Source: a virus
Direction: 5' to 3' (one strand)
DNA: 28,268 nucleotides
Virus genome (UHGV): UHGV-0093355
Below the pieces are notes generated by a model. That model searched no databases. It saw only the letters and a program-made list of their open reading frames with translations, and was not told the origin of the DNA. This document shows positions 964 to 28,070 of this stretch, one piece after another. A program made the position numbers and the translations under genes. Position 1 is the stretch's first letter, and each line of letters opens with the position of its first letter.

Positions 964-1977
964 TTACTCTACTGTGGACACTGTGTGGACACTCTCGGCC
1001 TCAGTACCACCTCTTAGCGGATTAAGAGAAATGGCGTCCTGAAGGTACTCTGGCGCAAAATGAGCGTAAACCATAGTTTGCTCAATCCGCGTGTGACCTA
1101 GTATCCGTTGTAGCGTGATAATACTTCCTCCATTAATCATGAAATGAGTGGCAAAGCTGTGCCTTAGTGCATGTGTGGCTTGCCCCATTGGCAAATCCGG
1201 TTTTATTGCTTTCATTGTTCGTCTGAAGCGAGGGTAATCAGCATCAGGGAATAAAAAACCTCGTTTGTTATCCGCGATCATTTTGGCAACAGCCTCTGAG
1301 ATCGGGACGGTGCGTGGTTTGTTTGTTTTCGTTTTAACAAACGTGACGCGGTTATGGATGATATTTTCTGCTTTCAAACGAGCTGCTTCTCCCCAACGTG
1401 CTCCAGTACTCAGGCAAAGAATCGCAATCTTTTTGTTGTCGCCGTCAAGAGCAGCAAGCAGTAAGGCAATTTCTTCCTGCGTGAGATAGCCTGTGTCTGG
1501 TTTTTCCTCCTTAAGCCTTTTTGTCCCTCTGATAGGGTGCTCACCAAAGAATAACTCCGCTTCAATCAGGGCTGTAAACATGCCGCTAATACATGTTAAA
1601 TCACGATTGATACTCGAAGGTTTAATACCCTGACTTCTTCGGGTGGCGCAGTACTGGCTGATAAGCGATTTCGTAATTTGAAATGCGCATGGGTCATTCG
1701 TTATTTTTGTGAAGATTTCAATTTTTCCAAGATTAGATTTCCCATGCTCTTCGTGTTTACCCTTTAAATCCCACCAGATCTGTGTCAGCTCCGACAGACG
1801 TCGCTTGTCTGTTGGTTTTGATAGCCATTCTTTATTGTGGTGGTTGTACAACGTGTATTTCTCGAAAGCGACAGCTTCGCTTTTCTTATCAAACTTCCTA
1901 CGGATGCGTTTTCCATTACGTCCAGTAGGGCGGATGTCCACTTCATATCGACCATCATCGAGTTTTTTGATTGCCAT
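964..1977 (-). CDS. int: Tyrosine integrase, 337 aa (P2 Int-like)
   Basis: C-terminal catalytic region HALRHSFATHF...LGH...VYAH, typical of tyrosine recombinases; N-terminus MAIKKLDDGRYEVDIRPTGRNGKRIRRKF and length 337 aa match P2 Int; adjacent to att core. Confidence 0.95.
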   Translation of the reverse strand: MAIKKLDDGRYEVDIRPTGRNGKRIRRKFDKKSEAVAFEKYTLYNHHNKEWLSKPTDKRRLSELTQIWWDLKGKHEEHGKSNLGKIEIFTKITNDPCAFQITKSLISQYCATRRSQGIKPSSINRDLTCISGMFTALIEAELFFGEHPIRGTKRLKEEKPDTGYLTQEEIALLLAALDGDNKKIAILCLSTGARWGEAARLKAENIIHNRVTFVKTKTNKPRTVPISEAVAKMIADNKRGFLFPDADYPRFRRTMKAIKPDLPMGQATHALRHSFATHFMINGGSIITLQRILGHTRIEQTMVYAHFAPEYLQDAISLNPLRGGTEAESVHTVSTVE

Positions 1978-4274: not shown

Positions 4275-4552
4275 GTATTCGTATTGAAATTGGCGAGCGT
4301 TATGTCGTCACAAATGACCGTTTTCAGTTCATTTTGCAGGAGAGAAAGACCGCTGAAACCGGGAAGAATGCCGGTAAAGAGTGGCTGGATGTTGTCGGCT
4401 ATTACCCCAAATTAAACCAGCTCGTTTCCGGTCTGATCCATCACGATATTTTGAGCGGTAACGCTGTCTCTTTTGAGGCGCTGAGCTCTCAGGTTGAGCA
4501 GCTCGGTCAGCAGTGTCTGACTGCGTTTCTCTGTGCGGGGAAATCTAAATGA
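4271..4552 (+). CDS. Small early hypothetical protein, 93 aa
   Basis: GGAG at 4261-4264 before ATG 4271; ATGA overlaps with both neighbours. Confidence 0.5.
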   Translation: MSIRIEIGERYVVTNDRFQFILQERKTAETGKNAGKEWLDVVGYYPKLNQLVSGLIHHDILSGNAVSFEALSSQVEQLGQQCLTAFLCAGKSK

Positions 4553-5556
4553 TAGTTGATACCCGCTGCCGAGCTGAAAGCTCTATCAATATTATTTCTG
4601 TTTCTGGCGGAAAGGATAGCCTTGCTCAATGGCTTGTTGGTATTGAAAGCGGTGTGCATTTTTTGCCGGTTTTTGCAGACACCGGGCATGAGCATCCGCA
4701 GACAATGGAGTATCTCGATTATCTGGAGAACCGACTCGGGCCGGTTAAACGGGTTAAAGCTGACTTCTCCCGACAGATTGAAGGTAAGCGCAAGTTTATT
4801 GCTGAGAAATGGCCTGTTTCTCTGGTTGAAGAGTGCGGAATGTCTCCGGGGGAAGCGGCAGAGCGCATCAATTGTGCGCTGGAAATTCTCAAGCCTACTG
4901 GTATCCCATTTCTTGATTTGTGCATGTGGAAAGGGCGATTTCCTTCCACTAAAGCCAGATTTTGCACTTTTGACCTTAAACATGAGCCAGTACGTACTCA
5001 GGTCGTGTTACCTGCGCTTAATGAGTTTGATGAGGTAATTAGCTGGCAGGGGATTCGCGCTCAGGAGTCTCCTGCGCGCGCGGGTCTGCCTGCCTGGGAA
5101 GAGGATGCGGACAATACGCCCGGGCTCCATGTATACCGTCCTATTCTGAACTGGACGCATGAGGAGGTATTTGCATTTGCAAGACGTCATGGAATTAAAC
5201 CTAATCCGTTATACCAGCAGGGATGCAGTCGTGTCGGTTGTATGCCCTGCATCCACGCCAGAAAGTCTGAATTAGCTGAAATTTTTAGTCGCTGGCCGGA
5301 AGAGGTTAAGCGTGTTGCGGAATGGGAGCGACTTGTCGCCGCATGCTCCAGACGCGGAAATTCTACTTTCTTCCCGTCAACTCATGACCCGCGTCGTGCG
5401 GAACGCCGCATTGATATTATTACTGTCGATGCTTACGGAATTGAGTCTTATCGTGACTGGGCGATGACCACGCGTGGCGGGGCACAGTTTGATTTGCTGG
5501 CTTCGGTGAATGATAAGTCAGTTTGCAGTAGTGTCTATGCCGGTGTATGTGAATGA
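4549..5556 (+). CDS. PAPS-reductase-like (PP-loop) protein, 335 aa
   Basis: N-terminal SGGKDS motif (nt 4603-4620) typical of the PAPS reductase / PP-loop family; C-terminal Cys cluster CSRVGCMPC; ATGA start/stop overlaps at 4549 and 5553 couple it to the flanking genes. Confidence 0.8.
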   Translation: MIVDTRCRAESSINIISVSGGKDSLAQWLVGIESGVHFLPVFADTGHEHPQTMEYLDYLENRLGPVKRVKADFSRQIEGKRKFIAEKWPVSLVEECGMSPGEAAERINCALEILKPTGIPFLDLCMWKGRFPSTKARFCTFDLKHEPVRTQVVLPALNEFDEVISWQGIRAQESPARAGLPAWEEDADNTPGLHVYRPILNWTHEEVFAFARRHGIKPNPLYQQGCSRVGCMPCIHARKSELAEIFSRWPEEVKRVAEWERLVAACSRRGNSTFFPSTHDPRRAERRIDIITVDAYGIESYRDWAMTTRGGAQFDLLASVNDKSVCSSVYAGVCE

Positions 5557-7826
5557 GTCATTCTTTCCAGGAGCAATACACCTGCGTACCTCCGTCAGCA
5601 TTTGCTGCAGGCACCGGTAAGGCGTTTACCGGTGCTTATGCATGGAACGCGCCACGCGAGGCCGTCGGGCGCGAAAGACCCCTTACACGTGACGAGATGC
5701 GTCAGGTGCAAGGTGTTTTATCCACGATTAACCGCCTGCCTTACTTTTTGCGCTCGCTGTTTACTTCACGCTATGACTACATCCGGCGCAATAAAAGCCC
5801 GGTGCACGGGTTTTATTTCCTCACATCTACTTTTCAGCGTCGTTTATGGCCGCGCATTGAGCGCGTGAATCAGCGCCATGAAATGAACACCGACGCGTCG
5901 TTGCTGTTTCTGGCAGAGCGTGACCATTATGCGCGTCTGCCGGGGATGAATGACAAGGAACTGAAAAAGTTTGCCGCCCGTATCTCATCGCAGCTTTTCA
6001 TGATGTATGAGGAACTCTGCGATGCCTGGGTGGATGCCCATGGCGAAAAAGAATCGCTGTTTACGGATGAGGCGCAGGCTCACCTGTATGGTCATGTTGC
6101 TGGCGCTGCACGTGCTTTCAATATTTCCCCGCTTTACTGGAAAAAATACCGTAAAGGACAGATGACCACGAGGCAGGCATATTCTGCCATTGCCCGTCTG
6201 TTTAACGATGAGTGGTGGACTCATCAGCTTAAAGGCCAGCGTATGCGCTGGCATGAGGCGTTACTGATTGCTGTCGGGGAGGTCAATAAAGACCGTTCTC
6301 CTTATGCCAGTAAACATGCCATTCGTGATGTGCGTGCACGCCGCCAGGCAAATCTGGAATTTCTTAAATCGTGTGACCTTGAAAACAGGGAAACCGGCGA
6401 GCGCATCGACCTTATCAGTAAGGTGATGGGCAGTATTTCTAATCCTGAAATTCGCCGGATGGAGCTGATGAACACCATTGCCGGTATTGAGCGTTACGCC
6501 GCCGCAGAGGGTGATGTGGGGATGTTTATCACGCTGACCGCGCCGTCAAAGTATCACCCGACACGTCAGGTCGGAAAAGGCGAAAGTAAAACCGTTCAGC
6601 TTAATCACGGCTGGAACGATGAGGCATTTAATCCAAAGGATGCGCAGCGTTATCTCTGCCGTATCTGGAGCCTGATGCGCACGGCATTCAAGGATAATGA
6701 TTTACAGGTCTACGGTTTGCGAGTCGTCGAGCCACACCACGACGGAACGCCGCACTGGCATATGATGCTTTTTTGTAATCCACGCCAGCGTAACCAGATT
6801 ATTGAAATCATGCGTCGCTACGCGCTCAAAGAGGATGGCGACGAAAGAGGAGCTGCGCGAAACCGTTTTCAGGCAAAACACCTTAACCGGGGCGGTGCTG
6901 CAGGGTATATCGCGAAATACATCTCAAAAAACATCGATGGCTATGCACTGGATGGTCAGCTCGATAACGATACCGGCAGGCCGCTGAAAGACACTGCCGC
7001 GGCTGTTACCGCATGGGCGTCAACGTGGCGCATTCCGCAATTTAAAACGGTTGGCCTGCCGACAATGGGGGCTTACCGTGAACTACGCAAATTGCCTCGC
7101 GGCGTCAGCATTGCTGATGAGTTTGACGAGCGCGTCGAGGCTGCACGCGCCGCCGCAGACAGTGGTGATTTTGCGTTGTATATCAGCGCGCAGGGCGGGG
7201 CAAATGTCCCGCGCGATTGTCAGACTGTCAGGGTCGCCCGTAGCCCGTCGGATGACGTTAACGAGTACGAGGAAGAAGTCGAGAGAGTGGTCGGCATTTA
7301 CGCGCCGCATCTCGGCGCGCGTCATATTCATATCACCAGAACGACGGACTGGCGCATTGTTCCGAAAGTGCCGGTCGTTGAGCCTTTGACTTTAAAAAGC
7401 GGCATCGCCGCGCCTCGGAGTCCTGTCAATAACTGTGGAAAGCTCACCGGTGGTGATACTTCGTTACCGGCTCCCACACCTTCTGAACACGCCGCAGCAG
7501 TGCTTAATCTGGTTGATGACGGTGTTATCGAATGGAATGACACGGAGGTCGTGAGGGCGCTCAGGGGCGCATTAAAACACGACCTGAGAACACCAAACCG
7601 TCAGCAAAGAAACGGAAGCCCGTTAAAACCACATGAAATTGCACCATCGGCCAGATTGACCCGGTCTGAACGATTGCAAATCACCCGTATCCGTGTTGAC
7701 CTTGCTCAGAACGGTATCAGGCCGCAGCGATGGGAGCTTGAGGCGTTGGCGCGCGGGGCAACAGTAATTTATGAAGGTGAGCGGTTTAGTTATGCTGTAA
7801 AAGACGATTGGGTGATGTTTTCTTAA
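5553..7826 (+). CDS. A: Rolling-circle replication initiation endonuclease, 757 aa (P2 gpA-like)
   Basis: Conserved HxH metal motif (PHWHMM) and active-site tyrosine region AGYIAKYISKN; N-terminal region recognised as P2 A-like; position at end of early operon. Confidence 0.9.
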   Translation: MSHSFQEQYTCVPPSAFAAGTGKAFTGAYAWNAPREAVGRERPLTRDEMRQVQGVLSTINRLPYFLRSLFTSRYDYIRRNKSPVHGFYFLTSTFQRRLWPRIERVNQRHEMNTDASLLFLAERDHYARLPGMNDKELKKFAARISSQLFMMYEELCDAWVDAHGEKESLFTDEAQAHLYGHVAGAARAFNISPLYWKKYRKGQMTTRQAYSAIARLFNDEWWTHQLKGQRMRWHEALLIAVGEVNKDRSPYASKHAIRDVRARRQANLEFLKSCDLENRETGERIDLISKVMGSISNPEIRRMELMNTIAGIERYAAAEGDVGMFITLTAPSKYHPTRQVGKGESKTVQLNHGWNDEAFNPKDAQRYLCRIWSLMRTAFKDNDLQVYGLRVVEPHHDGTPHWHMMLFCNPRQRNQIIEIMRRYALKEDGDERGAARNRFQAKHLNRGGAAGYIAKYISKNIDGYALDGQLDNDTGRPLKDTAAAVTAWASTWRIPQFKTVGLPTMGAYRELRKLPRGVSIADEFDERVEAARAAADSGDFALYISAQGGANVPRDCQTVRVARSPSDDVNEYEEEVERVVGIYAPHLGARHIHITRTTDWRIVPKVPVVEPLTLKSGIAAPRSPVNNCGKLTGGDTSLPAPTPSEHAAAVLNLVDDGVIEWNDTEVVRALRGALKHDLRTPNRQQRNGSPLKPHEIAPSARLTRSERLQITRIRVDLAQNGIRPQRWELEALARGATVIYEGERFSYAVKDDWVMFS

Positions 7827-7909
7827 ACTGATGGCATCATGATACATTAACAAATCTGAAGCAATACTTTAGTAGTCGTGCATTAATAACTTATAAGGAA
7901 TTATTATCG

Positions 7910-9232
7910 ATGAGTGCGTTAAGGGATGAAGTATCTATGAAGGTTGCGTTCTCTAATGGCATGATAAACAAATTATGCAAAAGTTTTTTTTATAGTCATG
8001 GTAAGGAGCAGCCTTGTATTCAAGTCGGTAAAGCATTAGAAGATTTTGTTTTTTGGCTTGCATATAATGATGAGGAGATTGCAAAATGTGCTAGTAGGTT
8101 ATTAAAAGCATATGGCCCCCAATTAGGTATAAGTGACCTTCACAATGCGAAAAGATTATTGTTAGGTTTTTGTTCTGAAGCCTTCAATCGCATTGATGCT
8201 GATTTTCTGTCGCTTAATCCTGATAAGATTTGTGTTGATGATATTATAACGCAAGTTCATAGAAAAAATCTTAGTGAGATGTTTAAGTATTATATACTTT
8301 CACGAATAAAATTATGTCCATATATTTATAATCTTGGGTGTGCTGGCTTTGATGGGAAGCTTGAGCTTAGAGAAAATTTATTTTTATATGGCCCGGGGTT
8401 AGGGGTGGAATTACTTTCTGATATTAAAGACAAAACTGACATCAAGGTTCCTGTTGATTTTTATGATGATGAATATATGCGGCATAAACCAATTGGGAAG
8501 TATTTTCGACAGTCAAAATCCTGCTTGGTGGTGGCATATGCTTCATCAGAGGATAAAGCGGTGAAAATGTTTGATAGTTTGTTTGGAGCTTTATGTCTTG
8601 CAGTTGATAATCCTTTTGCGATTAATCGAGTTGCTGTTAATAATCTAGTTGAGTCTTTTGGTGTCGGGAAATATCATGAAAGTGAGTTTCGGGTGAATAT
8701 TCCGTCTGTATATAATTTAAATATAACGGATTCAGCCTTGGCGATACTTACAAAAATACTTTCATCACCTGATAAAAGGATGTTGTCTGCTCTTTCCTTT
8801 ATAGCGCACGGGTGGAGGGATGACAAACGTGAAAGGTTTTTGAATCAATTTATAGCATTGGATGCTATGTATGGAACCAATAATGGTAATAAAAATTCAA
8901 TTATTGGCGGTGTTTGCAGAGATGCGGCGAAAATTATTGATATTGATTCAAAAATAGGAATAATCTATGAGCTTAGGTGTAAGTTTGTTCATGGAGATAT
9001 TTCATCGTTATCTGATAATGATGGCTATCGAAAGTTTATTGATAGCTATGGCGTAGACCCTATTGTTTCTCTTTTTGAAATTCTTAAAGAATGCGTCCTT
9101 AATTATAATGGTACTTACAAAACGCCAAAAGATGTTGGAAAGGCAGATAGGTCTATTTGCGTTCCTGCTGAGTTGCTTCCAGCGGTTGAGAGGATGATAG
9201 CGGAATACAGTGGAGTTAAAAAAACAAACTAA
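7910..9232 (+). CDS. Cargo protein of unknown function, 440 aa (tin/old position)
   Basis: Single long ORF with AAGGA RBS before ATG 7910; strongly AT-rich compared with flanking A and Q; no Walker A motif, so not Old-like. Confidence 0.7.
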   Translation: MSALRDEVSMKVAFSNGMINKLCKSFFYSHGKEQPCIQVGKALEDFVFWLAYNDEEIAKCASRLLKAYGPQLGISDLHNAKRLLLGFCSEAFNRIDADFLSLNPDKICVDDIITQVHRKNLSEMFKYYILSRIKLCPYIYNLGCAGFDGKLELRENLFLYGPGLGVELLSDIKDKTDIKVPVDFYDDEYMRHKPIGKYFRQSKSCLVVAYASSEDKAVKMFDSLFGALCLAVDNPFAINRVAVNNLVESFGVGKYHESEFRVNIPSVYNLNITDSALAILTKILSSPDKRMLSALSFIAHGWRDDKRERFLNQFIALDAMYGTNNGNKNSIIGGVCRDAAKIIDIDSKIGIIYELRCKFVHGDISSLSDNDGYRKFIDSYGVDPIVSLFEILKECVLNYNGTYKTPKDVGKADRSICVPAELLPAVERMIAEYSGVKKTN

Positions 9233-9374
9233 AGATGTTCTTTTTAGCCTCGCCTGCATTAGGTGCATAAATTTGCATTCATTTTCAAATATATCTTTTG
9301 ACAGTGAGCACCAGAACAGGCGCTTGCCGGGGGGGATGATGCACCTGCATTAAAACCGACCCATGAAGCGGGCG

Positions 9375-9393
9375 GGCGAGGCGGGGAAAGCAC
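9375..9393. other. cos cohesive-end site (P2-type 19-nt)
   Basis: GGCGAGGCGGGGAAAGCAC in the GC-rich non-coding interval just upstream of the leftward portal gene, matching the P2 cohesive end as I recall it. Confidence 0.6.
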
Positions 9394-9562
9394 TGCGCGC
9401 TGGCGGTGGTGCTGATTTTATTTTTTCAGCGTCTCAGCGCGTCGTGATGGCATTTAGTCGGCCTGCTGGGGCGTTGGTGTGTCTGCGGGGTGTTTTGTGC
9501 GGTGGTGAGTGTGTGAGGGCGTGATGACGGGATGTAAAAAAGCCGCCCGCAGGCGGCGATGT

Positions 9563-10597
9563 TCAGCCGTTGTCTGTGTCCAGTGAGTAGTTTTTAAAGC
9601 GGATGACCTCCTGACCGAGCCAGCCGTTTATTTCCCGAATCCTGTCCTGTAACGGGATAAGCTCATTGCGGACAAAGACCTTTGCCACTTTCTCAATATC
9701 ACCCAGCGACCCGACGTTCTCCGGCTTGCCACCCATCAACTGAAAGGGGATGCGGTGCGCGTCCAGCAGGTCAGCGGCGCTGGCTTTTTTGATATTAAAA
9801 AAATCGTCCTTCGTTGCCACTTCACTGAGCGGGATAATTTTAATGCCGTCGGCTTTCCCCTGTGGGGCATAGAGAAACAGATTTTTAAAGTTATTGCGGC
9901 CTTTCGACTTCACCATGTTTTCGCGAAGCATTTCGATATCGTTGCGATCCTGCACGGCATCGGTGACGTACATGATGTATCCAGCATGTGCGCCATTTTC
10001 GTAATACTTGCGGCGGAACAGCGTGGCCGACTCATTCAGCCAGGCAGAGTTAAGGGCGCTGAGATATTCCGGCAGGCCGTACAGCTCCTGATTAATATCC
10101 GGCTCCAGCAGGTGAAACACGGAGCCGGGCGTGAAGGCTGTCGGCTCGTTGAAGGACGGCACCCACCAGTAAACATCCTCCTCCACGCCACGGCGGGTAT
10201 ATTTTGCCGGTGAGGTTTCCAGTCTGATGACCTTACCGGTGGTGCTGTAACGCTTTTCCAGAAACGCATTACCGAACACCAGAAAATCCAGCACAAAGCG
10301 GCTGAAATCCTGCTGGGAAAGCCACGGGTGCGGAATAAACGTTGAAGCCAGAATATTACGTTTGACGTAAATCGGTGAGCTGTGATGTACGGCAGCACGC
10401 AGGCTTTTTGCCAGACCGGTAAAGCTGACCGGTGGCTCATACCATCTGCCGTTACTGATGCACTCGACGTAATCCAGAATGTCACGGCGGTCGAGTACCG
10501 GCACCGGCTCACCAAAGGTGAATGCCTCCATTTTCGGGGCGCTGGCGGTCATTGTTTTCACCGCTGACTGCGGTGTTTTCCCTTTTTTCTTGCTCAT
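9563..10597 (-). CDS. Q: Portal protein, 344 aa (P2 gpQ-like)
   Basis: 344 aa, sequence recognised as P2 Q-like; leftward orientation next to cos and terminase. Confidence 0.95.
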   Translation of the reverse strand: MSKKKGKTPQSAVKTMTASAPKMEAFTFGEPVPVLDRRDILDYVECISNGRWYEPPVSFTGLAKSLRAAVHHSSPIYVKRNILASTFIPHPWLSQQDFSRFVLDFLVFGNAFLEKRYSTTGKVIRLETSPAKYTRRGVEEDVYWWVPSFNEPTAFTPGSVFHLLEPDINQELYGLPEYLSALNSAWLNESATLFRRKYYENGAHAGYIMYVTDAVQDRNDIEMLRENMVKSKGRNNFKNLFLYAPQGKADGIKIIPLSEVATKDDFFNIKKASAADLLDAHRIPFQLMGGKPENVGSLGDIEKVAKVFVRNELIPLQDRIREINGWLGQEVIRFKNYSLDTDNG

Positions 10598-17868: not shown

Positions 17869-18298
17869 CGCCGTCACGGTGCTGAAAACCAGTCCCGAGA
17901 TGCTGCGGATATTCGTGGATAACGGGAGTATTGCCTCCACACTGGCGACGTCTATGTCATTCGAAAAGCGTTACACGCTCAATGTGATTGTGACCGACTT
18001 TACCGGTGATTTTGACCTGCTCATTGTGCCGGTGCTGGCGTGGCTGCGGGAAAATCAGCCAGACATCATGACCACCGACGAAGGCCAGAAAAAGGGCTTC
18101 ACGTTTTATGCAGACATCAACAATGACAGCAGCTTTGATATCAGCATCAGCCTGATGCTGACCGAGCGCACGCTGGTCAGTGAGGTGGAAGGCGCGCTAC
18201 ATGTGAAGAATATCCCGGAACCTCCGCCGCCGGAGCCGGTTACCCGCCCGATGGAGCTGTATATCAATGGCGAACTGGTGAGCAAGTGGGATGAATGA
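17831..18298 (+). CDS. R: Tail completion protein R, 155 aa
   Basis: 155 aa; position and sequence as P2 R. Confidence 0.9.
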   Translation: MLKPDSLRRALTDAVTVLKTSPEMLRIFVDNGSIASTLATSMSFEKRYTLNVIVTDFTGDFDLLIVPVLAWLRENQPDIMTTDEGQKKGFTFYADINNDSSFDISISLMLTERTLVSEVEGALHVKNIPEPPPPEPVTRPMELYINGELVSKWDE

Positions 18299-18743
18299 GT
18301 TTAAGCGTTTTGAAGACCGGCTGACCGGACTTATTGAGTCGCTGTCACCGTCAGGGCGTCGGCGGCTGAGTGCAGAGCTGGCGAAGCGTCTGCGGCAGAG
18401 TCAGCAGCGTCGGGTGATGGCACAGAAAGCCCCGGACGGCACACCCTACGCGCCACGCCAGCAGCAGAGCGCCAGAAAAAAGACCGGTCGTGTTAAGCGA
18501 AAAATGTTTGCGAAACTTATCACCAGTCGTTTTTTGCATATCCGCGCCAGCCCGGAACAGGCATCAATGGAGTTTTACGGCGGGAAGTCGCCGAAAATTG
18601 CCAGTGTGCATCAGTTCGGTCTGTCGGAAGAAACCCGGAAAGACGGTAAGAAAATTGATTATCCGGCGCGTCCTCTGCTCGGCTTTACCGGTGAGGATGT
18701 GCAGATGATTGAAGAGATTATCCTGGCTCACCTTGAGCGTTAG
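18291..18743 (+). CDS. S: Tail completion protein S, 150 aa
   Basis: 150 aa; overlaps R stop; position and sequence as P2 S. Confidence 0.9.
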   Translation: MNEFKRFEDRLTGLIESLSPSGRRRLSAELAKRLRQSQQRRVMAQKAPDGTPYAPRQQQSARKKTGRVKRKMFAKLITSRFLHIRASPEQASMEFYGGKSPKIASVHQFGLSEETRKDGKKIDYPARPLLGFTGEDVQMIEEIILAHLER

Positions 18744-18814: not shown

Positions 18815-19600
18815 TTATGAGTGGTTTTTATTTGATGCTTTGTATTCTAAAACCTTCTTATTGGCGTAAAAGAATTTTGTATATGACAGGAATATAACCA
18901 GACCTGAAGTGAAATAGACGAGGGATAGTATTAATAATGCTTTTTTGTGACTGTTATTATCTTTAATCTCCTGGCTTAACCATTCGGAGTCCTCCTCGTT
19001 TAGCTGTAAGAGCTTATTGCAGGCGATCTCAGGAAGTGTGTCTTTTATAAATACGTTTTGCAGTCTCTTGCAATCGGCAAGGCTATAAGTTTTATTGAAT
19101 TCAACTGTTTTATTGTTGAAGGATAAAAGAACTTTGTCACTATAAACATAGTACATCATATTTTTATATGGTATGCCTATGGCATCTCTTACTATAGCGG
19201 ATTGTTTGTTGTGTATATAACATGCGAAGAGAATATAAATAATACTGGACAGAATTACAATTATTGTTTTAATTATGTGTGGTGGTTTTGTTATGTCACC
19301 CCAGAAGCGAGTAAGAAAAAAATACGATGTTTTTAGTTTTCCATCAATCAGCCCCTGCTGTATCATTCTCACATCTTCGATGCCTGATACATTGATTCCG
19401 TTAAGTATTTTAAATAGTTGAATGTCGCGCCACTCGCGGTCCAGTCTTTTTAATTTTTTGTCTGAATATCCAAATTTGAAATAATGTGCAATAAGCCTCA
19501 TAAGGTTACTTTTACCAAAGCTAAAAAATGCTAATACTGCAAAGACCAAAAGATACAAAACGATTAGCTCCCACACATTAGTCACATTATAGCTGACCAT
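18815..19600 (-). CDS. Multi-pass membrane protein of unknown function, 261 aa (P2 orf30 position)
   Basis: AAGGAG RBS 6 nt before the ATG; AT-rich; three strongly hydrophobic segments (N-terminal, central, C-terminal); opposite strand to the late operons. Confidence 0.7.
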   Translation of the reverse strand: MVSYNVTNVWELIVLYLLVFAVLAFFSFGKSNLMRLIAHYFKFGYSDKKLKRLDREWRDIQLFKILNGINVSGIEDVRMIQQGLIDGKLKTSYFFLTRFWGDITKPPHIIKTIIVILSSIIYILFACYIHNKQSAIVRDAIGIPYKNMMYYVYSDKVLLSFNNKTVEFNKTYSLADCKRLQNVFIKDTLPEIACNKLLQLNEEDSEWLSQEIKDNNSHKKALLILSLVYFTSGLVIFLSYTKFFYANKKVLEYKASNKNHS

Positions 19601-19683
19601 TACGCTCTCCTTGAATGTTGTCTGGTGGTTCTACAAATGAATCCAGATAGCATAACTTTTATATATTGTGCAATCTCACATGC

Positions 19684-20319
19684 ATGGACACTCTCGCAAA
19701 TATTCAGGAACTCGCGCGCGCACTGCGCAACATGATTCGTACCGGCATTATCGTTGAAACCGACCTTAACGCCGGTCGCTGCCGTGTGCAGACCGGTGGC
19801 ATGTGCACCGACTGGTTGCAGTGGCTGACTCATCGTGCTGGGCGTTCGCGCGCATGGTGGGCACCTTCCGTGGGGGAACAGGTGCTGATTCTGGCTGTGG
19901 GCGGTGAACTCGACACGGCGTTCGTTCTGCCGGGGATTTATTCCGGCGATAACCCCGCGCCGTCTGCGTCGGCGGATGCCCTGCATATCCGTTTCCCTGA
20001 CGGGGCGGTGATTGAGTATGAACCCGAAACCAGTGCACTCACGGTAAGCGGAATTAAAACGGCCAGCGTGACGGCTTCTGATTCTGTTACTGCCACGGTG
20101 CCGGTGGTCATGGTGAAAGCATCAACCCGCGTCACCCTGGACACACCGGAGGTGGTCTGCACCAACAGGCTGATTACCGGCACGCTGGAAGTGCAGAAGG
20201 GCGGGACGATGCGCGGCAACATTGAACACACCGGCGGTGAACTCTCATCAAACGGTAAGGTACTGCATACCCATAAACACCCCGGCGACAGCGGCGGCAC
20301 AACCGGGAGTCCTTTATGA
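19684..20319 (+). CDS. V: Baseplate spike/assembly protein V, 211 aa
   Basis: Start at MDTLANIQELARAL (19684); 211 aa; recognised as P2 V-like. Confidence 0.9.
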   Translation: MDTLANIQELARALRNMIRTGIIVETDLNAGRCRVQTGGMCTDWLQWLTHRAGRSRAWWAPSVGEQVLILAVGGELDTAFVLPGIYSGDNPAPSASADALHIRFPDGAVIEYEPETSALTVSGIKTASVTASDSVTATVPVVMVKASTRVTLDTPEVVCTNRLITGTLEVQKGGTMRGNIEHTGGELSSNGKVLHTHKHPGDSGGTTGSPL

Positions 20320-24803: not shown

Positions 24804-25345
24804 GTTGTATGAGCTCTAGTGTGAGCTTACATATCTATGGCACAGAGTAAAGACTAATCTGACAGTCCGCTCTGTGCCAAAAGCGGTTCTTGCCTGAAGG
24901 CTCTGCCAGCTCGTTATTGCCCCATTCCGTGTTTTGGCTCGTTAGCTCAATCAAAAAATCCCACTCCTGCTGCCATACAAATTCTTATCTATTTGCCTAT
25001 GTTTGCCTTATCAGAAATCGACTAATAATGTATGGGTATACCGTCATGCTTAAATTTAGGTGTTTTTGTATGATTTTAACACAGAATTAGTGCGCGCCAA
25101 TTCCATTCGAAATGTATAAAAATCTATAAAATCAATTAACTATAGGTTCTTGATTTTAGTTAATAGGTTTGAAAAACGCGCCTGCGCGTTTTTCAAGATA
25201 GTGTATTTGGCAAAAAGATGATAACATATTTGCATACAAATAGTTAACCGTGCGCGTTTTTACTGGTCTAACGAAGTAAATGTGCATCCGCACGAATAAA
25301 ATATTAGGCCTATACAACACACAGCCATCACTATCGGGAATAAAT

Positions 25346-26785
25346 ATGACAGACAGGAAAACAGTAGCCGTAGTTGATGCTGGTCACCTCGTTTCACCAA
25401 TCGGTGAACTCAATGAGCAATTAGAGTGGTATCTCGTAAACGTTGGGCTCCCTGTTAATGATGTTGTTGCACCAATTGCTGAAAGAAAAAAGGTCATTGC
25501 ACAACTCGCTGATGCTCTGGAAATACTTCCTCACGCTGATCGTGGACAAGCCCACTACTTATCGCGCTTTACGATTGCAATCGCTGCTGGGCTTTTTGAT
25601 GGCGCGCTAAATTATCTTTGGGACGAAACCGTCAGGGCTCTTCGTCGCCAAGTCATTAGCTTTGATATTCAATATTTTTATTCGGTTGCCGAGAAAATCA
25701 GTTCCCGCTACAAGTCGCTTTCAAAGTCAGAAGAAATCGATCAAGTTAGCGAACACGATCTATTGGAGGGGTGCCGCCGAATAGGGTTGGTAACTGATGT
25801 TAACTATCAACGACTAGAGCATGTTAACTACATGCGCAATCATGCAAGTGCTGCACATCCAAACGACAACGAAATCGATGGCTACGAAATGCTTGGGTGG
25901 CTAACGGCATGTCTTAAACATGCCATCACCGCAGAGCCAGACCATTCTCTAATTTCCATCAAGCAACTTCTCCAGAACATTCGTACGGTAGCCATTCCAA
26001 GTGGTGACTTTTCCGTAATCTGTTCTGATTTGGCAAAACAACCGCAAGAGCGGATTGATGACTTCCTCTGGACGTTATTTGGTATCTACACGGATGATAA
26101 ATCTGCTCAGCATGCAAGAGATAATATTGAAGGCATTAGTCCAGCCGTCTGGGTTGCTGCAACCGAAGATAGAAAATACGAAATTGGTGCCCGGTTTGGA
26201 ATGCTCCGAAAAAATGGACAGGTCGCGAAGAAGGATGCCAGCCAGAAATTCCTGGAAGTGGTGGGTGGTCTCGCATACAAAGATGAAGACAGCCTTGCCG
26301 GCGAATTGATAGAGAAGCTTGAGAACCTCTATCGTGCGCACTTCGGATCAAACAATTTTTATAACGAATATCCTCATGCAAAAGCACTGAATGATAGTTT
26401 GCCCGCTACAGGAAAAATTCCCCGTGCGGCTCGGGCAATGTGGGTCAAGGTAATTTCAATTTGCTATGTCGGCAACGGGCATGGATACAGGCAAGGAGTG
26501 GACGAGCAAGCCCTCCCATATTATCAAGACTACGTAAGTAATTTCACCGAAGGGGAAACGGCCGAATTTATCAAACTTTTCTTTGAACCCGAGTTTGCCA
26601 GCCCGCTATCACGAAGCACCCCAGATAAACGAGCCCGTGATTTGGCAACGCTCCTGAAAGCCAAACACACAAACGTTCATTTACAGCGAGCGCTCGATTT
26701 AATCATTGCAGCCCCCGCGAAGACTTTATATGGTCTTTACAACACTACAGGCTTCAAGAATGTTGTTCCAAATCTTCCAGCTTAA
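25346..26785 (+). CDS. Cargo protein of unknown function, 479 aa (Z/fun position, gene 1)
   Basis: Long ORF in an AT-rich island; start set at ATG 25346 (MTDRK), though ATG 25280 is possible and neither has a strong RBS. Contains an R-N-x5-H motif (about nt 25835-25858). Confidence 0.65.
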   Translation: MTDRKTVAVVDAGHLVSPIGELNEQLEWYLVNVGLPVNDVVAPIAERKKVIAQLADALEILPHADRGQAHYLSRFTIAIAAGLFDGALNYLWDETVRALRRQVISFDIQYFYSVAEKISSRYKSLSKSEEIDQVSEHDLLEGCRRIGLVTDVNYQRLEHVNYMRNHASAAHPNDNEIDGYEMLGWLTACLKHAITAEPDHSLISIKQLLQNIRTVAIPSGDFSVICSDLAKQPQERIDDFLWTLFGIYTDDKSAQHARDNIEGISPAVWVAATEDRKYEIGARFGMLRKNGQVAKKDASQKFLEVVGGLAYKDEDSLAGELIEKLENLYRAHFGSNNFYNEYPHAKALNDSLPATGKIPRAARAMWVKVISICYVGNGHGYRQGVDEQALPYYQDYVSNFTEGETAEFIKLFFEPEFASPLSRSTPDKRARDLATLLKAKHTNVHLQRALDLIIAAPAKTLYGLYNTTGFKNVVPNLPA

Positions 26786-26869
26786 CAAATCGTTCCAGAG
26801 GACTCCGAAAAAGCTACGCTTTTTCTCCCTCCCCCCCCTGAACTCATGCGTTATGTTTAAGAGGCTGGT

Positions 26870-27772
26870 TTGAGCGGTATAAAAATAACTTTTGCTTATG
26901 ATAGCAATGGTGTTCGTGTGGATGCTGATTCTTATGGAGCTCTCCCTATAGCTCATCCTCTCGTATGTCCAGATAAAAACTGTGAAGCGTTTTTGAAGCA
27001 TGTGAATGGGTATAAGCGTGAAAGCTACGGCAAACAGCAGTTCATCCCTGCTTTTTACCGATTAGAAAAAGGCTTCGATCATAGTGAGTATTGCCGTTAC
27101 AAATCCTCTGGTAGAGATACAATTGTTGCTGGAGAGTCAGATCATGAAGTTAAAGATGCTCTTGCTAAAGGTGAATTATTGTTTCGTATTCATGTAATGG
27201 ATGCGGAAGAAAAGAAAAAGCTAAAAGATAAGGCAGGGGTCTTTCAACAGTTTCCACCGAATGATACGACTGAGCGGAAATATAGAAACCGAGGACGCAG
27301 ATCTACTTACGTTCGCACGATGAATAGCCTATTGGAAATCTATAATCATGGGCGTCTTAATCCACAAGATAGAGCAAAGATTAGGCTCATAATTGGCGGT
27401 AAGTTAGTAAAGTGGACAGATTTCTTTTACTCGACCAATCACCTAGGTAGTCTAAAATCACGCCTTCATCGTGAGGGAATTGTTCAAGCAGCCGTTGTAG
27501 TTAAAGTAAGTGTTGTAGGACTACCAAATAAAAAACTTAATGGCTTTTGCTTTATAGAGTGTAGCCCCAAGACTACTGGATTAGGTAAACATATATACAC
27601 AACGTTGAAACTAGCTAAGAGCTTCCCAAGTAGTCACTTCACTTTGAATCAAAACGTAATGGTTTTGGGAAAATTTAGCATTCCAGAACCAAGTGCCCGT
27701 GTTACTCCATCATATTTAGGTAATGAAATCAGGACACTAATAACTCACGCACAGCAAGTGGTGGTCATTTAA
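26870..27772 (+). CDS. Cargo protein of unknown function, 300 aa (Z/fun position, gene 2)
   Basis: ORF beginning with TTG at 26870, 5 nt after AAGAGG (26859-26864); co-directional, 84 bp after gene 1; AT-rich; basic (Lys/Arg-rich) central region. Confidence 0.6.
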   Translation: MSGIKITFAYDSNGVRVDADSYGALPIAHPLVCPDKNCEAFLKHVNGYKRESYGKQQFIPAFYRLEKGFDHSEYCRYKSSGRDTIVAGESDHEVKDALAKGELLFRIHVMDAEEKKKLKDKAGVFQQFPPNDTTERKYRNRGRRSTYVRTMNSLLEIYNHGRLNPQDRAKIRLIIGGKLVKWTDFFYSTNHLGSLKSRLHREGIVQAAVVVKVSVVGLPNKKLNGFCFIECSPKTTGLGKHIYTTLKLAKSFPSSHFTLNQNVMVLGKFSIPEPSARVTPSYLGNEIRTLITHAQQVVVI

Positions 27773-28070
27773 ACATAACAAATGCTTCCAGAGGGCTTCC
27801 AACGCGTGGCATTTTTGCAGTGCGTTGATTTCGGTGGTTTCAGTGTTATGCGGAAACTTGGTAGTAGCGTTGCCTGCCCTTAGGCGGGCGTTATCTCCAT
27901 AGAAATTTTAATCCGAAACTGACGAATTAGAGCAAAGGGGCTACCACGCTTTATATGTCTAGAAGCAAGTTACGGCAATGACCGCTCCTCGCTCAAAGCA
28001 GACTGTCAGATTTGATAGCGTTTGGGCTATGTAAATTGTCAGTTGGAAAATGAGTGAGTGCAAATCATGA

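Follow-up and report, generated by a model that had tools for sequence, protein, structure and literature searches.

A predicted single-protein HEPN-like anti-phage cassette in the gpA-gpQ hotspot of a P2-like prophage

A single AT-rich gene occupies the slot between the replication gene gpA and the portal gene gpQ of the P2-like prophage UHGV-0093355. It is probably a self-contained, single-protein anti-phage cassette that would act by abortive infection, a reading to which our computational analysis gives a probability of about 0.6. The stretch of DNA analysed (the window) comprises 28,268 nt of this prophage, and all coordinates refer to its given strand. The preliminary description, made from the sequence letters, took the gene for a stand-alone exclusion or abortive-infection determinant, and every computational test run on this proposal (the hotspot slot, the mobility of the cassette and an invariant HEPN motif) agrees with it. 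On the same analysis, the 440-residue product probably joins the single-protein HEPN abortive-infection nucleases, a class already well described through ApeA, DARNA and PrrC.

The cargo gene, its hotspot and its mobility

The genes of the window follow the order integrase, C/Cox region, gpA, cargo, cos, and the Q-P terminase and morphogenesis genes, and the annotation of a syntenic E. coli prophage (L001) shows the same arrangement. The cargo between gpA and gpQ, adjoining cos, is variable, and this is the position documented as the tin/old hotspot of P2-like phages, in which 1,650 gene arrangements have been found in 18,150 loci (Rousset et al., 2022, PMC9122126); the preliminary description had placed the gene at this locus correctly. 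Several cargoes of the hotspot have been validated as defences, and it also carries non-defence cargo such as partition systems and the cytolethal distending toxin (Rousset et al., 2022, PMC9122126). The features of the locus are as follows.

5553-7826, plus strand: gpA-type replication endonuclease gene, an open reading frame (ORF) of 757 residues (Pfam Phage_GPA, E=3e-124); left border of the hotspot
7827-7909, plus strand: AT-rich spacer of 83 nt upstream of the cargo gene, holding the Shine-Dalgarno sequence AAGGA (7895-7899) and weak sigma-70-like sites
7910-9232, plus strand: cargo gene with an ATG start, encoding a soluble 440-residue protein of 49.5 kDa (PHROG 23812; RefSeq 'HEPN domain-containing protein')
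7937-8704, plus strand: N-terminal alpha/beta region (residues ~10-265), with mixed helices and strands at residues 12-259 of the AlphaFold model
8711-9109, plus strand: C-terminal all-helical HEPN-like domain (residues 268-400), assigned from a domain model and from hhalign against an ApeA HEPN profile
8861-8863, plus strand: codon for the invariant acidic residue D318, within the helix 'FIALDA[LM][YF]G' at the HEPN helix-2 position
8975-8992, plus strand: Rx4H motif R356-C-K-F-V-H361, the predicted catalytic centre; the sole Rx4-6H in the protein, with R and H invariant in 89 sequences
9233-9338, plus strand: 3' non-coding end of the cargo, before P2-like phage homology restarts
9375-9393, plus strand: P2 cos 19-mer (cohesive-end sequence), an exact match to GGCGAGGCGGGGAAAGCAC, directly past the stretch 7827-9374 that the preliminary description covered
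9563-10597, minus strand: portal gene Q, the right border of the hotspot; its ORF of 344 residues bears the annotation 'phage portal protein' in the E. coli prophage L001

Exactly one long ORF lies between the gpA stop codon (7826) and the minus-strand portal gene, and there is no second credible ORF in 7827-9338. Phage matches to window positions 7600-9600 are confined to query positions 1740-2001, which correspond to window positions 9339-9600; since homology with other P2-like phages restarts at about 9339, the cargo extends over approximately 7827-9338. No Rfam family is matched anywhere in the window, so that the search gives no sign of an RNA antitoxin or other structured RNA in the cargo. 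The GC content is 0.34-0.36 over 7800-9199 as against 0.51-0.58 on either side; it is 0.353 in the cargo ORF (0.275 at third codon positions), 0.532 in gpA and 0.528 in Q. At the base composition of the cargo, 440 stop-free codons would arise by chance with a probability of 5e-16, and the longest ORF in 500 shuffles of the cargo averages 80 residues with a maximum of 170, as compared with 466 residues from stop to stop in the actual sequence. The ORF is preceded by the ribosome-binding site AAGGA at 7895-7899, 10 nt ahead of the ATG. A single AT-rich ORF of 440 residues at 7910-9232, set in a GC-balanced backbone and furnished with its own ribosome-binding site, had been described beforehand, and the ORF list and the GC profile bear this out. 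For most homologues from organisms other than E. coli, Citrobacter and Enterobacter, the first residue corresponds to M10 (ATG at 7937), which makes the true start codon (7910 or 7937) uncertain; residues 1-6 are modelled with a predicted local distance difference test score (pLDDT) below 50. No signal peptide, transmembrane segment or hydrophobic segment is present, consistent with a soluble protein.

Of the 5426 complete E. coli genomes, 46 carry a full copy of the gene, which is chromosomal in every case; the exact protein occurs on at least 1000 contigs from Enterobacteriaceae, Salmonella and E. albertii among them. A comparison of cargo across P2-like prophages, which the preliminary description had suggested, finds homologues of 62-64% identity in the same slot between gpA and the portal gene in prophages of Enterobacter (63%) and Citrobacter; the Enterobacter prophages have two different chromosomal flanks. 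In a P2-like prophage of Serratia quinivorans, a 54%-identical homologue lies instead in the slot between the tail gene S and the baseplate gene V. Outside P2-like prophages, a Vibrio island carries a homologue beside genes for HNH_5, HEPN_RES_NTD1-RES and a cyclic oligonucleotide-based anti-phage signalling pair (SAVED and a DncV-like nucleotidyltransferase), near a type IV secretion system gene. In Pseudoalteromonas, an island bounded by an integrase gene holds the homologue together with Schlafen/AlbA_2 and DEAD-helicase genes, and in Idiomarina the homologue stands among IS21 and Mu-type transposases, adjoining McrB-N, NOV_C and DUF6119 genes. The gene moves on its own, as a cassette of one gene, between two hotspots of P2-like prophages and a number of defence or mobile islands. 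The contigs of two distant superfamily members (P0054 and P0041) are too short to give an informative context.

The Vibrio loci (L005, 8079-11521; L006, 7042-11371; L007, 349-4678) have a further regularity. A conserved gene of 222 residues always lies upstream of the homologue and a 374-residue HNH_5 gene always lies downstream, neither of which has a PADLOC match, and a 198-residue Phage_integrase-family gene comes next in two of the three loci (L006 and L007) as well as in the Pseudoalteromonas locus (L008, 9001-10975). Either a small mobile cassette or a form of the system with several genes may account for this arrangement.

The C-terminal domain and its relatives

The full-length AlphaFold model (pLDDT 80.6; predicted template modelling score, pTM, 0.71) is alpha/beta at residues ~12-260 and all-helical at residues ~274-397. 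When the C-terminal part is modelled by itself, seven helices are obtained (pLDDT 94.7, pTM 0.87). The N-terminal region has no Pfam, PADLOC or PDB match and no detectable relative outside its own superfamily, and we infer that it is a sensor or regulatory module. The sole family match of the whole protein is PHROG 23812, whose function is unannotated.

The close family consists of 26 clusters at 90% identity, which are 45-72% identical to the window protein and come from Enterobacteriaceae, Serratia, Vibrio, Shewanella, Pseudoalteromonas and Idiomarina. A HMMER scan of 1.84 billion cluster representatives recovers 225 relatives at E<=1e-3. Most of them are 400-480 residues long and have the C-terminal domain alone in common, at their own C-terminus, while one subgroup aligns over almost the full length. 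A third homologue search, with the domain alignment as the query, returned unannotated fragments alone, and a search of the PDB sequences with the close-family profile gave no meaningful match.

Two motif blocks are shared at fixed spacing by 149 of the 175 retrieved proteins (the close family together with the 150 relatives listed): [AS]-[LIF]-D-[AS]-[LM]-[FY]-G and, after 30-35 residues, R-x4-H-G. The only invariant columns in both the domain alignment (A2, n=47) and the full-length alignment (A3, n=89) are D318, R356 and H361, and the mean column identity among the 89 sequences is 21%. The preliminary description had singled out ELRCKFVHGD (residues 354-363, nt 8969-8998) as a possible Rx4H motif at nt 8975-8992 and had rated it weak. 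The position from R356 to H361 is exact, but the rating is not upheld; no feature of the family is stronger than this motif, in which R356 and H361 are invariant in the 89 relatives together with D318. The Arg is followed by S in 54 members, N in 45, C in 33, A in 7, H in 5 and G in 5, so that the canonical R-N-x3-H is common in the family.

HEPN domains are defined by Rx4-6H, in which the residue after the Arg is typically polar (N, D or H), and by a conserved acidic residue in helix 2 near this motif (Anantharaman et al., 2013). The domain of the window protein contains an Rx4-6H motif and an acidic residue in helix 2, arranged as an acidic helix, an insert helix and an Rx4H at a helix-loop junction. 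In the numbering of the domain model, the helices span 39-54 (including D51), 60-71 (the insert) and 78-93, with R89 in the last helix turn and H94 as the first loop residue. D318 aligns with the invariant E381 of ApeA. In hhalign, the domain profile reaches a probability of 73.2% (E=3e-5, 86 columns) with a profile of five ApeA sequences assembled from plasmid genes, over HEPN helices 1-2 only; the paper that founded the HEPN class relied on HHpred values of 75-98% (Anantharaman et al., 2013). A hidden Markov model (HMM) search of the PDB sequences with the domain profile places Ec4ApeA (9hxm) first at E=0.049. This alignment is in register for both blocks, namely RF..aL[D/E]aL and LY.LR[N/S]..VH, the latter falling on the catalytic LRNxIVH of ApeA, and Ec4ApeA recurs with an independent subgroup profile at E=1.8. 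When 47 domain segments are searched against Pfam, HEPN families appear in six of them (RiboL-PSP in three members, with a best value of 6.4e-5, MAE_28990 in two and Apea in one), and they are the sole plausibly linked Pfam families that recur among weak matches at the level of single members. Collectively, the sequence comparisons and the models give moderate support for, but do not prove, the assignment of the C-terminal domain to HEPN.

Some calibration is available for the silence of the family libraries. A true protein of the Ec4ApeA type, with a full-length match to 9hxm (E=0, 1326 bits), is without a Pfam match, and so is a 'minimal ApeA' of the Bm1ApeA type, which the canonical ApeA profile finds at 1.2% only. 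The absence of Pfam matches in the 440-residue protein therefore says little, since it is normal for these libraries to miss proteins in this region of sequence space. A homologue search seeded with a 47-residue fragment of ApeA yielded no candidates.

Proposed function, alternatives and other cargo of the window

ApeA and DARNA are single-protein HEPN tRNases that act via abortive infection (bioRxiv 10.64898/2026.01.26.701840; 10.64898/2026.02.22.705581). By analogy with these two and with PrrC, the HEPN-like domains of the 440-residue protein would dimerise to form a composite, metal-independent RNase site from R356 and H361, aided by D318. In a lysogen, the N-terminal region would hold the nuclease off until an infection cue is sensed, which may be a component of the phage or, as in ApeA, a small molecule that arises as a by-product of the infection. 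The active enzyme would then cut an essential RNA, most likely tRNA at the anticodon loop and otherwise mRNA or rRNA, and the resulting halt of translation would make the superinfecting phage fail, to the benefit of the lysogen population and of the prophage itself.

Several results weigh against this reading. Expression in the lysogen is a weak point, because the 83-nt spacer holds no promoter of consensus grade: a standard promoter scan upstream of the ORF found no site, and a relaxed scan found weak sigma-70-like sites, the best of which agrees at 8 of 12 positions (ATGATA-18-AATACT, 7839-7868). The P2 early operon is repressed in the lysogen, where expression of the gene would require a promoter of its own. 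The gene is absent from 50,697 sequenced phage records searched by tblastn. No experiment on the protein is found in the literature searched, and it is absent from the set tested by Rousset et al. The sequence links to ApeA lie below or at the edge of significance; the match to ApeA in the PDB is lost when the full-length profile of 89 sequences or the subgroup profiles A4 and A6 are used, and with one ApeA sequence as the partner hhalign yields 7-17% only. Pfam, NCBIfam and PADLOC return nothing significant for the protein, Pfam finds no family in 20 distant full-length relatives, and HEPN matches are rare with full-length queries. The residue after R356, called atypical in the preliminary description, is Cys and not the typical N, D or H; Cys is among the three common variants of the family. 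Similarity to solved HEPN domains is not detected by Foldseek, in which neither the full model (best E 1.2) nor the C-terminal domain model (best E 1.5) finds a HEPN or any other significant fold in the PDB, and the full model has no match in BFVD at E<=0.001. The remote-homology and fold searches that had been suggested as a check divide, the hhalign comparison with the ApeA HEPN domain speaking for the assignment and the fold comparison against it.

In a rival reading, the C-terminal domain would not be a HEPN RNase but another helical domain, in which D318, R356 and H361 form a different catalytic or ligand site; such a protein may still be a defence effector, with another chemistry or target. 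This is unlikely on balance. In its favour, neither model leads Foldseek to a HEPN structure, the Pfam HEPN models stay below threshold on the 440-residue protein, the links to ApeA are marginal, and Rx4H is a short motif. On the other hand, the invariant acidic residue and the Rx4H stand at the positions prescribed for HEPN, the 73% match to helices 1-2 of the ApeA HEPN domain is accompanied by an HMM alignment with LRNxIVH in register, and the weak Pfam matches recur on HEPN families and on no other functional class, with the Pfam silence being shared by genuine ApeAs. Conversely, the protein might be a bona fide member of ApeA, i.e. a shortened orthologue, as the label 'HEPN_Apea' in the table of Rousset et al. 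implies. Ec4ApeA is its top PDB sequence match, hhalign to the ApeA profile gives 73%, the overall logic is shared (a C-terminal HEPN domain joined in one chain to an N-terminal region whose function is unknown), and a functional 'minimal' ApeA of 467 residues (Bm1ApeA) is accepted in the literature. We consider this to have little probability, since the PADLOC ApeA model matches two real ApeAs (5e-7 and 3e-6) but neither the 440-residue protein nor its relatives P0013, P0037, P0054 and P0062. Moreover, solved ApeA variants detect one another as single sequences at 1e-7 to 1e-13, compared with 0.05 for the 440-residue family; the N-terminal regions are unrelated (1.9% in full-length hhalign against ApeA); and the protein has 440 residues rather than ~600, with a compact HEPN domain in which 38 residues separate D from R as against ~125 in ApeA (E381-R508, with an insert of ~110 residues). 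The alignment with the Bm1ApeA type is in register but insignificant (0.8-5.4%). Membership of the ApeA family was rejected: the PADLOC ApeA model and the Pfam families HEPN_Apea and ApeA_NTD1 are unmatched, and the architecture and N-terminus differ.

Other roles are conceivable for a phage-borne HEPN protein. It might be a toxin or addiction module for stabilisation, or a stress or fitness moron not primarily directed against phages; HEPN domains are common toxins in toxin-antitoxin pairs, and the P2 hotspot also holds non-defence cargo. This is rather improbable, because the cargo contains neither an MNT or other partner ORF nor an Rfam RNA, the fused N-terminal region of 265 residues is typical of sensor-effector defence proteins and not of minimal toxins of toxin-antitoxin systems, the neighbours in other genera are defence genes, and no signal peptide or transmembrane segment hints at a secreted toxin. 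A role in the phage life cycle or in counter-defence, for example RNA processing or degradation of an immune signal such as cyclic oligoadenylates, is very improbable. Some HEPN nucleases do deplete cyclic oligoadenylate signals, and the gene is carried by a phage, but a gene serving the life cycle should be conserved within the phage lineage, and this gene is instead one of many alternative cargoes, found in 46 of 5426 E. coli genomes, in none of the 50,697 phage records and in non-phage islands too. An anti-phage cassette acting by abortive infection is therefore preferred.

Part of this is already on record. The same protein, with S for L134, is listed in row 45 of Table S5B of Rousset et al. 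(2022, PMC9122126) as 'HEPN_Apea', with 84 occurrences and the remark 'Likely a RNAse'. It is not among the cloned systems of that study (Table S2), and the protein on its construct pFR103 ('Putative HEPN', from E. coli S88) is another one. The RefSeq name 'HEPN domain-containing protein' has also been assigned already, and no paper citing the accession numbers of the protein is found in the literature searched. Since that table and RefSeq already list the protein, the present finding is a correct re-discovery of a catalogued, uncharacterised candidate. The practical gain is modest, as the flag of a likely RNase stands in a public table, and a specialist will not be surprised; yet the candidate is clean, compact and testable, belongs to a family missed by the current models of defence finders, and has an N-terminal region without known relatives. 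If the reading is true, a compact single-gene HEPN immune nuclease would help to explain part of the fraction of P2 hotspots with no known defence, a fraction that amounts to 19% of P2 elements in a 2026 survey, and its sensor region could reveal a new infection trigger. A wider proposal, which we regard as possible but doubtful, is that the protein stands at the enterobacterial tip of a large superfamily, so far unrecognised, of compact HEPN immune nucleases that each consist of a single protein, and that the lineage-specific N-terminal alpha/beta regions form a new class of infection sensors with triggers unlike the deoxydinucleotides of ApeA or the single-stranded DNA (ssDNA) bound by SSB in DARNA. 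The HMMER scan recovered at least 225 cluster representatives at 50% identity, mostly of 400-480 residues, for which Pfam, PADLOC and NCBIfam have no model.

Other parts of the window also carry variable or AT-rich genes. A second AT-rich cargo (GC ~0.39) lies on the minus strand at 18815-19986, between the tail gene S (18291-18743) and the baseplate gene V (19666-20319), and consists of two abutting ORFs at 18815-19600 (260 residues) and 19600-19986 (127 residues). These have no Pfam or PADLOC match and are present in 460 of the 5426 complete E. coli genomes, always as 'hypothetical protein'; the Serratia homologue of the HEPN-like gene fills the same slot. This cargo could be a second, uncharacterised defence candidate. 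At 24850-27800, past the tail-fibre genes, ORFs at 25280-26785 (501 residues) and 26870-27772 (300 residues) with a GC content of 0.40-0.46 have no Pfam or PADLOC match, and complete E. coli genomes match them over at most 37 nt; the 501-residue protein has no match in any sequenced phage. The region looks like a third cargo, in the P2 Z/fun position, and suggests that the window does not stem from E. coli. Upstream of gpA, at 4549-5556, a gene whose stop codon overlaps the gpA start encodes a 335-residue PAPS-reductase-domain protein (Pfam, 1.1e-35) with PADLOC similarity to SspD (3.5e-22), BrxP and DndC. This slot is variable as well: the syntenic E. coli prophage (L001) lacks the PAPS-reductase gene, a Citrobacter prophage (L023) has a DNA methylase gene, and an Enterobacter prophage (L002) has a gene for an unknown protein of 274 residues. 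The first 600 bp of the window are AT-rich (GC 0.36) and contain an ORF of 140 residues (266-688) with no Pfam or PADLOC match, just outside the integrase gene (964-1977, minus strand); it may belong to the host flank or be cargo adjacent to the attachment site.

Comparison with known systems

The P2 proteins Old and Tin share with the 440-residue protein the position between gpA and cos/gpQ and the presumed exclusion of competing phages. Old consists of an ABC-ATPase and a TOPRIM nuclease. No Walker A motif ([AG]x4GK[ST]) is found in the 440-residue protein by motif scan, so that, as had been stated at the outset, it is not an ATPase of the Old type; neither Pfam nor PADLOC matches it. Both Old and Tin were rejected, for want of a Walker A motif, of a PADLOC match and of a sequence relationship to either. 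PrrC, RloC and the HEPN-MNT (HepT) systems are alike in the RNase chemistry of an Rx4-6H HEPN domain, which is predicted here, and provide the precedent for tRNA anticodon nucleases. PrrC and RloC are fused to ABC ATPases, whereas the 440-residue protein has no ATPase, and HepT, a minimal toxin, is paired with an MNT antitoxin, whereas no partner gene occurs in the cargo. A HEPN-MNT or other toxin-antitoxin pair was rejected on the lack of a second ORF in 7827-9338 and of an Rfam match. DARNA (PD-T7-3; bioRxiv 10.64898/2026.02.22.705581), a protein of 456 residues, is likewise a single-protein HEPN tRNase acting through abortive infection. In DARNA, the HEPN domain is N-terminal (R117x4H122) and is followed by a C-terminal helical domain that senses ssDNA; with this opposite domain order, and with the PADLOC PD-T7-3 model unmatched, DARNA was also rejected.

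ApeA (Gao et al., 2020; Juozapaitis et al., 2026, bioRxiv 10.64898/2026.01.26.701840; structures 9hxb-9hxn) resembles the 440-residue protein in several respects. In a single polypeptide it combines an N-terminal region of unknown function with a C-terminal HEPN domain bearing R-[N/S/C]-x3-H, it is carried by mobile elements, and its acidic residue lies in an 'A-L-[D/E]-x-L' helix preceded by 'RF'. A sensor-gated HEPN RNase with abortive infection as its outcome is likewise proposed for the 440-residue protein. ApeA is larger (~600 residues) and is composed of N, Mid and split-HEPN domains, in contrast to the compact HEPN domain here, and the two are related in sequence at the superfamily level only. 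A doughnut-shaped oligomer, a dinucleotide-binding pocket and cleavage of the tRNA anticodon are features described for ApeA. An Ec4ApeA-type gene occurs on IncF plasmids such as pKP91 of Klebsiella variicola (L009, 1493-5141), where it adjoins the anti-phage gene ppl near ccdA, and about 110 PLSDB plasmids carry at least 80% of its length. As this plasmid gene is labelled 'hypothetical protein', validated variants of ApeA are still unannotated in public records.

The 'minimal ApeA' Bm1ApeA (467 residues; bioRxiv 10.64898/2026.03.20.713152) is similar in size and has a compact C-terminal HEPN domain ('AFETLL ... ARGSIVHTGE') with similar spacing, and its type also goes unmatched by Pfam and PADLOC. 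An exact-match search for the Bm1ApeA gene in genomes gave no match, and the comparison was made with relatives that are 59-63% identical to Bm1ApeA over its first 130 residues. The lineages are different, Bm1ApeA being from Brucella according to its authors and the relatives used here being recovered from Agrobacterium; the N-terminal signature 'FVLYPLTSFGM' is missing from the 440-residue protein, and hhalign between the two types stays at 0.8-5.4%. Bm1ApeA protects against DNA phages, so small ApeA-like proteins can work.

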